Positions 3,001-6,000 of a stretch of 64,000 nt of DNA are shown here, one piece after another. The DNA is taken from NCBI RefSeq assembly GCF_057098645.1, contig NZ_CM169472.1; one strand, 5' to 3'. The first letter of the stretch is position 1. Each line of letters begins with the position of its first letter. A program made the position numbers.

Positions 3001-6000
3001 GGCGACAGGGGAGAGCGGGGAGAGACCGGTCTGACGGGAAATGCAGGTCCACAGGGTCCAAAGGGAGATACCGGTGCGGCAGGCCCACAGGGACCGAAAG
3101 GAGAAACAGGTGCGGCAGGCCCGGTGGGGGCAACCGGACCTCAGGGGCCGAAGGGCGACCCGGGGGAGACGCAAATACGGTTCCGTCTGGGGCCGGGAAA
3201 CATTATTGAGACAAACAGCAATGGCTGGTTCCCGGATACAGATGGCGCACTCATCACCGGACTGACCTTTCTTGACCCCAAAGATGCCACACGGGTTCAG
3301 GGTTTTTTTCAGCATTTGCAGGTCAGGTTTGGTGACGGGCCGTGGCAGGATGTCAAGGGGCTGGATGAAGTGGGCAGTGATACAGGCAGAACAGGAGAAT
3401 GACATGAACGTACTAAAAAACTTATGCAGCGTCTGTGCGGGTACGGAAAGCATGATGACCGTGAACACGGGGAGTTACTTACAGCACAACTGCGTCTGGG
3501 GCCGGCAGACATCCTGGAGTCAGATGAGAATGGCATTATCCCGGAGCAGGACAGGGTAATCACGCAGGTGGTGATACTGGATGCGGATAAAAAGCAGATA
3601 CAGTGCGTGGTAAGACCGCTGCAAATCCTGCGTGCTGACGGGACGTGGGAAAATGTTGGCGGGATGAAATAGCCCGACAGCTTCACAAAAACCGGAGTCC
3701 GGCTCCGGTTTTTTGTTGGTTAGATGTAATCTGACAGATACCTGTATAAATAACCGGTAACTGTCAGGTCAGAGCTAATACAGGTAATTATATTATAATC
3801 ACGAGCGCTTAGATGTATTAATGCCATGCTCTGCAAGATGCTGCATCAGACGCTGAGCCACATCAGGCAGAGGTCTTGATTGTTCATTTTGTACCGGCGG
3901 CGTTGGCGCAGGCCAGTTAGGTGCCGGAGGAATATGTTCAGCCATATTCCGGGCTGGTTGAATGCCATGCTCTGCAAGATGCTGCATCAGACGCTGAGCC
4001 ACATCAGGCAGAGGTCTTGATTGTTCATTTTGTACCGGCGGCGTTGGCGCAGGCCAGTTAGGTGCCGGAGGAATATGTTCAGCCATATTCCGGGCTGGTT
4101 GAATGCCATGCTCTGCAAGATGCTGCACCAGACGCTGAGCCACATCAGGCAGAGGTCTTGATTGTTCATTTTGTACCGGCGGCGTTGGCGCAGGCCAGTT
4201 AGGTGCCGGAGGAATATGTTCAGCCATATTCCGGGCTGGTTGAATGCCATGCTCTGCAAGATGCTGCACCAGACGCTGAGCCACATCAGGCAGAGGTCTT
4301 GATTGTTCATTTTGTACTGGCGGCGTTGGCGCAGGCCAGTTAGGTGCCGGAGGAATATGTTCAGCCATATTCCGGGCTGGTTGAATGCCATGCTCTGCAA
4401 GATGCTGCACCAGACGCTGAGCCACATCAGGCAGAGGTCTTGATTGTTCATTTTGTACTGGCGGCGTTGGCGCAGGCCAGTTAGGTGCCGGAGGAATATG
4501 TTCAGCCATATTCCGGGCTGGTTGAATGCCATGCTCTGCAAGATGCTGCACTAGGCGTTTGGCCACATCAGGTAGAGGCCGATGTAAAGCGTTTTTTTCT
4601 ATACTTGACTGAGTATAAGATGTGGAACGTTGAAGTCCTGATTCCGTATAAGAATTTTTTACCTTAAAAATAGTTGTTGCACTGGCAGGACTGTTGCTGG
4701 GAGAAAGAGGTGAGCTGGTTTTTACCGTGTTAGGTGTGCTTTTGTGCTGTGAGGCAGTGAAGCTACTGTTACGCGTAACACTTGATATACTGCGAGGAAT
4801 GCTGGAAAAAAAAGAATTAATGCTATTTATCATATAGATAACCTTATAAGAACTTTATGTGATAGTCTAATTTATCCGTTTGCATGAAATCTACCTTTTG
4901 TGAAATTCTCGTCAATATTTTACTCAAAATGATCGGCTGTAGGAATAAACTATTTGATATTATTGCGTTTTTAGAGTTGTTTTCAATCAGCTATAGATAG
5001 GGCTTGAACCGCCCCGGGTTTCCTGGAGAGTGTTTTATCTGTGAACTCAGGCTGCCAGATCATCGTTTCCGATGGAAGCATAATAAGCTTTTTCTGCTTC
5101 TGCCGGGGGAGTATGGCCCAGCCTTTCCAGCAATCGTCGATTGTTATACCAGTCCACCCACGTGAGTGTGGCCAGTTCCACTTCTGCACGGTTTTTCCAG
5201 CTCTTACGGTGTATTACCTCCGCTTTGTAAAGACCATTGATGCTCTCCGCCATCGCGTTGTCATACGAGTCACCTGTACTCCCTGTTGATGCCAGCAGTT
5301 TTGCTTCTTTTAGTCGCTCCGTATAGGCCAGTGATACATACTGAGAACCTTTATCACTGTGATGGACTGTGCCGGACGGCCGACGGGCCCACAACGCCTG
5401 CTCCAGTGCATCCAGCACGAATGTCGTTTCCATGGACGATGAGACCCGCCACCCCACGATGTATCCGGCAAACACATCAATGATGAACGCCACATAGACG
5501 AAGCCCCGCCATGTGCTGACGTAAGTAAAATCAGCCACCCACAGCTGGTCAGGTCGTTCTGCCACGAACTGACGGTTTACGCGGTCGCCTGCGGCAACGG
5601 CTTTCCGGCTGATGGTCGTACGGACCTTTTTACCCCGGAGAACACCGGCAAGTCCCATAACTGCCATGAGACGTGCCACAGTGCATCTGGCCACTCTGAT
5701 ACCTTCCCGTAACAACTGACGCCAGACTTTACGCACACCGTATACCTGGTGATTTTCATCGTATACGCGCTGTATCTCTTTCTTCAGCCAGTCATCGTGC
5801 TGCGCACGGGCACTGCGTTTATCCGGATGATGTCGCTGTTGCTGACAATGGTAATACGTTGACGGGGCAATATGCAGTTCGCTGCATAGCGGTCCGACCC
5901 CGTACTGCTCACGCAGCTTATCCAGCAGTGGCATCATTTTTTCCAGAGGCGGTCGAACTCCGCCTTCGCAAAATAAGCGGAAGCCTGGCGAAGGATATCG

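Follow-up and report, generated by a model that had tools for sequence, protein, structure and literature searches.

Collagen-like prophage tail fibres of the EPclA type are built of collagen repeats followed by a C-terminal Phage_fiber_C (PfC) domain, and it has been shown experimentally that PfC is a trimerisation domain which forms the distal globule of the EPclA fibre (Ghosh et al. 2012, PMC3368898). The locus which we describe here lies in a stretch of 64,000 nucleotides of contig NZ_CM169472.1 (assembly GCF_057098645.1), called the window throughout: after a fibre gene of this architecture stands a small open reading frame (ORF) of 82 codons, whose protein belongs to the same Pfam family as the PfC of EPclA (the ECs2717-type collagen-like prophage fibre of PMC3368898). 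It differs from EPclA in being a separate protein with its own start, with a 27-residue N-terminal extension and without fusion to a collagen stalk; any part which it plays in the virion is putative. Among the closest relatives are 89-aa proteins from lambdoid prophages of enterohaemorrhagic Escherichia coli (EHEC; e.g. WP_001101700.1 and WP_001023396.1, in PHROG 576 and PF06820), whose genes have the same position after a fibre gene, the same Shine-Dalgarno sequence (SD), the same start and stop and the same terminator, and which are 98% identical to the ORF of the window over residues 8-89. The window copy differs from them in having a run of six A's and not seven (A6 and A7 hereafter), so that the ATG which follows the SD is out of frame, and in having a Tyr for the Cys at residue 14, a Tyr which is also present in a common A7 haplotype. 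A comparable case is the side-tail-fibre gene stf of lambda PaPa, which Hendrix and Duda reportedly found in 1992 to be split by a frameshift into orf-401 and orf-314, with loss of the side fibres. There too a single-base frameshift is said to persist in a lineage and the pieces to be annotated as separate genes; the gene and the site are however different, and in lambda the loss of the side fibres is known.

The preliminary description of this locus had reported a conflict between two start sites, namely a strong SD with an ATG at 3404 in a frame which stops near 3559, and an 82-aa ORF which starts without SD at 3424. All these elements were found where it had placed them (Table 1). With an anti-SD pairing of -7.4 kcal/mol, the ATG at 3404 belongs to the strongest 3% of the 1024 ATGs of the window; the pairing at 3424 is +0.4 kcal/mol, which amounts to no SD, and 85% of the ATGs of the window do as well or better. 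The frame of the 82-codon ORF is -1 relative to the ATG at 3404. The SD is conserved in E. coli, in Citrobacter rodentium and in a 61%-identical relative, and no family match was obtained for the product of the 51-codon ORF which begins at 3404 (Pfam, NCBIfam and PHROG searches). Since the alignment to homologues places the conflict at one missing A, within 3415-3420, it is a real pattern and not the product of chance.

In this alignment the relatives carry CTAAAAAAACTT, with A7, and the window has A6. At the deletion site the A7 copies read ACTAAAAAAACTT, whose counterpart in the window and in the O145 genomes is ACTAAAAAACTT, and this is the single difference that matters. The A7 relatives have one frame of 89 codons from the SD-ATG to a stop equivalent to 3670-3672, and in other strains the Prokaryotic Genome Annotation Pipeline (PGAP) annotates a 270-nt (89-codon) gene from the ATG equivalent to 3404. 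As a single A is missing relative to the A7 copies, the 82-aa ORF corresponds to residues 8-89 of the ancestral protein, read from the internal Met8. The frameshifted small gene which had been proposed as one explanation of the conflict is thus borne out: the 89-codon frame of the homologues is made of the start of the first ORF and of the body and stop of the second, and instead of agreeing with either ORF as it stands here, it joins the two. The cause is very probably the loss of 1 nt from an A7 run in the first codons of an 89-codon tail-fibre gene which is common in prophages, and with the same high confidence we read the locus as an ordinary inherited homopolymer frameshift in a decaying E. 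coli prophage.

The identity of the protein is well defined. The 82-aa protein matches Pfam PF06820 (Phage_fiber_C) with 123.5 bits (E = 4e-36), membership being defined by a gathering score of 25 bits, and its residues 21-82 match positions 1-64 of the 64 of the profile. The profile of PHROG 576, 'tail fiber protein', has 89 positions, of which the window ORF covers 8-89 (E = 1e-54) and the A7 protein 1-89; the window copy, which gives no full-length match from the SD-ATG, is a truncated, frameshifted member of this family. Over 62 residues the small PfC shares 35% identity with the C-terminal PfC domain of the upstream fibre gene. Judged by these comparisons, the gene product is a stand-alone PfC protein, paralogous to the trimerisation domain at the C-terminus of the upstream EPclA. 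It had been suggested that the gene might be a tail-fibre assembly or chaperone-like gene. Such an identity was rejected, because no family of the Tfa type (e.g. Caudo_TAP) was matched: PF06820 is the only Pfam family found for the 82-aa and 89-aa proteins at E <= 0.01, and NCBIfam gave none. A lipoprotein was considered as well, on account of an LCGC motif near the N-terminus, and rejected, the Cys being preceded by 11 mostly polar or charged residues with no hydrophobic signal region; the second Cys of the motif is the residue which is Tyr in the window allele. As a separate observation, a tfa pseudogene fragment stands directly after the small PfC gene, as a feature of its own, in some prophages such as that of E. 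coli UTME-2 (L003, 1826-1902); this hints that the small gene and tfa are possibly the remnant of an older fibre-tip module.

A search by sequence gave no relevant solved structure, the best E being 0.47. The AlphaFold2 model of the intact protein, computed from a shallow alignment of 15 sequences, begins with a short helix (residues 3-12), which a disordered linker (14-22) separates from a small beta-rich domain starting at residue 30. Its mean predicted local distance difference test score (pLDDT) is 78, with block means of ~86-93 over residues 31-80 and a low value of ~64 for the N-terminal helix. The only notable Foldseek match is the tail fibre of phage Mu with its chaperone (PDB 5yvq chain A; probability 0.99, 60 columns, root-mean-square deviation 3.4 A, 23% identity), a weak match (E = 0.04, TM 0.41, from the 15-sequence model) which is a lead and gives no classification. 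It is consistent with the small protein being a fibre domain.

We looked at the state of the gene in its relatives. A scan of IMG/VR provided a sample of at least 104 true copies (n = 104 in what follows). In-frame 89-codon genes make up 98 of these, 97 with A7 and 1 with GAAAAAA; 3 copies have A6, on three haplotypes which differ from that of the window, premature stops of other kinds occur in 2, and the remaining copy, with A7, is cut by the end of its contig. The family is otherwise very narrow, an exhaustive profile search yielding 58 representatives, nearly all of them fragments more than 80% identical. Among these representatives is one 61%-identical stand-alone homologue (P0130), which also follows a PfC-bearing fibre gene and has AGGAGG ahead of its ATG. 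It begins MTIFKKIKHCLFGC (protein MTIFKKIKH...), with the two Lys codons written AAG AAA, hence in frame and with no A-run, and it has a Lys at position 8 where E. coli has Met8. Because the IMG/VR copies are mostly in frame and because this homologue starts at its SD-ATG and lacks Met8, the ancestral state is a single frame which starts at the SD-ATG, and A6 is derived. The fibre gene and the small PfC gene which form the 61%-identical pair (L132, 110-974; GCA_008387015.1) overlap by 14 nt, the small gene beginning inside the end of the fibre gene; the existence of this pair shows that the two-gene arrangement predates the EHEC copies. The copy of C. rodentium (L010, 2481-2737; GCA_000759815.1) is one base short at the same site as the window, with TTGAAAAACTT, and here too the SD-ATG is out of frame; annotation takes the protein from the internal Met, with 78 aa. 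A second copy is truncated to 60 aa. The locus of C. rodentium is itself degraded, with a fibre remnant of 161 aa and a 12-nt in-frame deletion in the PfC domain.

The A6 allele is shared by many genomes. The surroundings in the window are 100% identical to those of E. coli O145:H28 genomes, and the 60-mer of the window around A6 was found exactly in 31 of the 707 matching records of complete E. coli genomes, mostly O145:H28, the others being O111:H8 strain 8E, O103:H2 CEC12044 and a few untyped strains; the A8 version of this 60-mer had no exact match in the same records. A6 is tied to a haplotype with GGGTAC and CAACTGCGT. In its A7 form this haplotype has exact matches in 105 records, and this A7 parent is present in another prophage of O145 strain RM9872 itself. 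The A6 copies occur in two prophage contexts with different 3' ends: next to tccP2 and serT in O145 and O111 (WP_001401301.1), and next to IS1 and an OspG-family kinase in O103 (WP_001189230.1). Since the copies in these two contexts share their 5' haplotype, the comparison points to one A6 allele which spread by recombination within EHEC prophages. On the O157-type haplotype, A6 is exact in at most two records, and in the record listed it distinguishes near-isogenic strains, RM9873-C1 having A6 and RM9872 A7 in a prophage copy other than that of the window. Errors or very recent changes may therefore account for some sporadic cases. Taken together, the alleles present the A-run as a recurrent deletion site and the allele of the window as a stable, inherited one.

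What the deletion would do to expression can be proposed as follows. Replication slippage most likely removed one A from the A7 run at codons 5-6, and this loss put the SD-driven start at 3404 out of frame with the part of the gene which codes for the domain. Ribosomes starting at 3404 would then make a nonsense peptide of 51 aa, MNVLK followed by 46 out-of-frame codons, and the PfC domain would come from the A6 allele only through poor initiation without SD at Met8, or through rare -1 slippage on A_AAA_AAC. Initiation at 3424 would moreover lie under the out-of-frame translation coming from 3404. The copy would thus be a null allele or one of strongly reduced expression. Two points weigh against so simple a loss. 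The 82-codon frame is fully open and keeps the whole PfC domain, so that some function by way of internal initiation or slippage is possible, and the copy of C. rodentium, which has the same short layout annotated from Met, could mean that the short form is tolerated.

Pushed to its end, this leads to the proposal that the 82-aa ORF annotated by PGAP from the ATG at 3424 is a working gene, whose protein has lost 7 N-terminal residues, is initiated independently of an SD and is functional. We consider this unlikely, even though the complete PF06820 domain is retained, the 82-codon frame is open in all A6 copies seen, the annotation in C. rodentium starts from the same Met, and the A-rich tract upstream could aid initiation without SD. 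The ATG at 3424 lacks an SD, and 20 nt before it stands the strong SD-ATG, whose ribosomes cross it in another frame, which they follow to 3559. The ancestral family starts at M1 and its divergent member has no Met8; a start at Met8 would take away over half of the predicted N-terminal helix (itself of low pLDDT), and the precedent of C. rodentium comes from a degraded locus.

A -1 frameshift has to be weighed next. The A6 run creates CT[A AAA AAC], a heptamer of the -1 slippery type X_XXY_YYZ in phase with the ATG at 3404, and a -1 slip on it would restore MNVLKKLMQ..., that is, exactly the 89-aa ancestral protein. The heptamer A_AA.A_AA.C is rated inefficient in E. coli, yet it shifts at more than 0.10% without stimulators (Sharma et al. 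2014, PMC4066793), and in one gene cluster of insertion sequences (IS), A_AAA_AAC_1, it is a proven frameshift site with the same phase and no established stimulator (PMC4066793). IS1 is among the IS families which use frameshifting, and low-level compensation of indels has been described (Atkins et al. 2016, PMC5009743). One could therefore imagine a programmed or 'corrective' frameshift on CT[A AAA AAC] which delivers the 89-aa protein at a set low level beside the 51-aa product, and the preliminary description had mentioned a programmed frame change. We regard it as very improbable. The heptamer exists only because of the deletion, and 98 of the 104 IMG/VR copies are simply in frame, as is the 61%-identical homologue with no A-run, so that the split arrangement in two frames, seen in 3 of the 104, is not conserved. 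No stimulatory structure is predicted downstream, the folds of 3385-3520 and 3422-3480 being no more stable than those of shuffled sequences (z = +0.55 and -0.16). Stimulatory SDs act on -1 shifts from a distance of 10-14 nt; here the SD lies 16 nt upstream of the slippery site, outside this range. The allele is also located in a prophage end which gathers IS elements. As for the IS cluster, which we take to be insA-insB' of IS1, its frameshift is conserved and needed for the transposase, whereas the heptamer of the window arose incidentally, through the deletion which marks a minority allele. The programmed frame change thus found no support, and a trace of full-length product at most can be expected from the A6 allele. 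A still fainter chance is given to the idea that A6 is kept alive by low, selected -1 slippage on A_AAA_AAC, which restores the 89-aa PfC beside the 51-aa product; if this were true, the recurrent passage from A7 to A6 in prophages of EHEC and C. rodentium would be a way of turning a fibre accessory protein down, not off. Slippage of RNA polymerase needs runs of ~9 or more A's or T's in E. coli, and the run of the window, with six A's, is shorter. The normal A7 allele also contains an in-phase heptamer, A_AAA_AAA, on which a -1 slip would enter a frame open for 45 further codons, to the TAA at 3557-3559.

An 'erroneous' frame change had been mentioned too. Homopolymers are error-prone, and the near-isogenic pair RM9873-C1 and RM9872 does differ at the run in another prophage copy; however, A6 is linked to a specific haplotype of single-nucleotide polymorphisms and to two RefSeq proteins. 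Because the 31 complete genomes which share the exact A6 60-mer were assembled independently, in several laboratories and countries and for several serotypes (O145:H28, O111:H8, O103:H2), a sequencing or assembly error is most unlikely as the origin of the missing A. Just as little credit can be given to a contingency switch, in which the small fibre gene would be phase-variable through slipped-strand mispairing in the A-run: A6 did arise repeatedly on different haplotypes (3 in IMG/VR, the allele of the window and the copy of C. rodentium), but it is rare (~3%), it is stably inherited across O145:H28 genomes with no reversion seen at the locus, no A8 was found in the genome records, seven A's are short for a useful rate of switching, and the places which match the gene region number ~9 to 12 per strain (median), so that switching one copy has little obvious effect.

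Read as an inherited homopolymer frameshift, the A6 allele is already catalogued; it is an ordinary frameshift allele of a known prophage gene family and raises no new biological question. The value of the finding is mainly practical. The 82-aa proteins which PGAP places at an internal ATG with no SD (WP_001401301.1 and WP_001189230.1) hide a frameshifted 89-codon gene, and of the inactivation sites seen in this very abundant EHEC prophage gene, the A7 run at codons 5-6 is the one hit most often. A6 also adds to the signs of decay at that end of the O145:H28 serT prophage which carries tccP2.

Table 1. Positions in the window of the elements of the small PfC gene and of the neighbouring features
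Feature	Position	Strand	Remarks
Shine-Dalgarno AGGAGA	3393-3398	+	5 nt 5' of ATG 3404; overlaps the final codons of the fibre gene
Ancestral start codon of the 89-codon gene, ATG	3404-3406	+	PGAP start of the 270-nt gene in A7 copies; PHROG 576 match 1-89
A6 run and following C, site of the 1-nt deletion (ancestral A7)	3415-3421 (A6 3415-3420)	+	alignments, codon layout
Out-of-frame ORF from the SD-ATG, 51 codons, MNVLK then NLCSVCAG...	3404-3559 (TAA 3557-3559)	+	
82-codon ORF, residues 8-89 of the ancestral protein	3424-3672 (stop 3670-3672)	+	PGAP WP_001401301.1 in RM9872
Coding region of the complete PfC domain	3484-3669	+	within the 82-codon ORF; PF06820 residues 21-82
Intrinsic-terminator-like hairpin with T-run	3687-3713	+	closes the fibre operon
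EPclA-type collagen-like tail-fibre gene, 3' part (collagen repeats and PfC)	2806-3402	+	stop TGA 3400-3402
IS21-family element	167-2805	-	istA 1038-2684, istB 266-1264; IS21 transposase E = 1e-84, IstB E = 2e-76 (NCBIfam)
tccP2/espF-like effector gene	3799-4833	-	tandem 141-nt (47-aa) proline-rich repeats
IS3-family element, IS629-like, 1310 bp	5005-6314	orfA/orfB -	3-bp GCT duplication
Truncated espV pseudogene remnant	6592-6990	-	
tRNA-Ser(TGA), serT	7079-7166	-	likely prophage attachment site
hyaA, hydrogenase-1 small subunit	7511-8710	+	

The terminator which follows the small gene has the GC-rich stem-loop and T-run of a Rho-independent terminator, with 12 pairs and a 3-nt loop; it starts 15 nt past the end of the 82-codon ORF and is kept in all aligned homologues. 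On the other side, the fibre gene matches the Pfam families Collagen (E = 1e-17) and Phage_fiber_C (E = 1e-35), and collagen repeats followed by a C-terminal PfC are the architecture of EPclA (Ghosh et al. 2012, PMC3368898). The fibre gene is intact in O145 strain RM9872, where it has 1314 nt and the annotation 'prophage tail fiber N-terminal domain'; gpJ and lom precede it, and the small gene, tccP2 (on the opposite strand), a remnant of espV, tRNA-Ser and hyaA follow in this order. The locus is thus that end of a lambdoid prophage at serT which carries the effectors, and the espV remnant, serT and hyaA mark the boundary between prophage and chromosome.

In the window the fibre gene is interrupted, as positions 1-170 and 2806 onward are contiguous in RM9872. 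The IS21-family element which separates them is flanked by a 6-bp direct repeat, ATAGCG (161-166 and 2806-2811), and its junction with the fibre gene was found in no complete E. coli genome of the collection. The IS629-like element separates tccP2 from the espV remnant; RM9872 has no such element at this site. Because of these two insertions, one in the fibre gene and one downstream, we conclude that this prophage end is decaying further in the window; the upstream IS probably also cuts the small gene off from the late transcription of the phage. The tccP2 protein is shorter by one repeat unit, with 344 aa in the window compared to 391 aa in RM9872.
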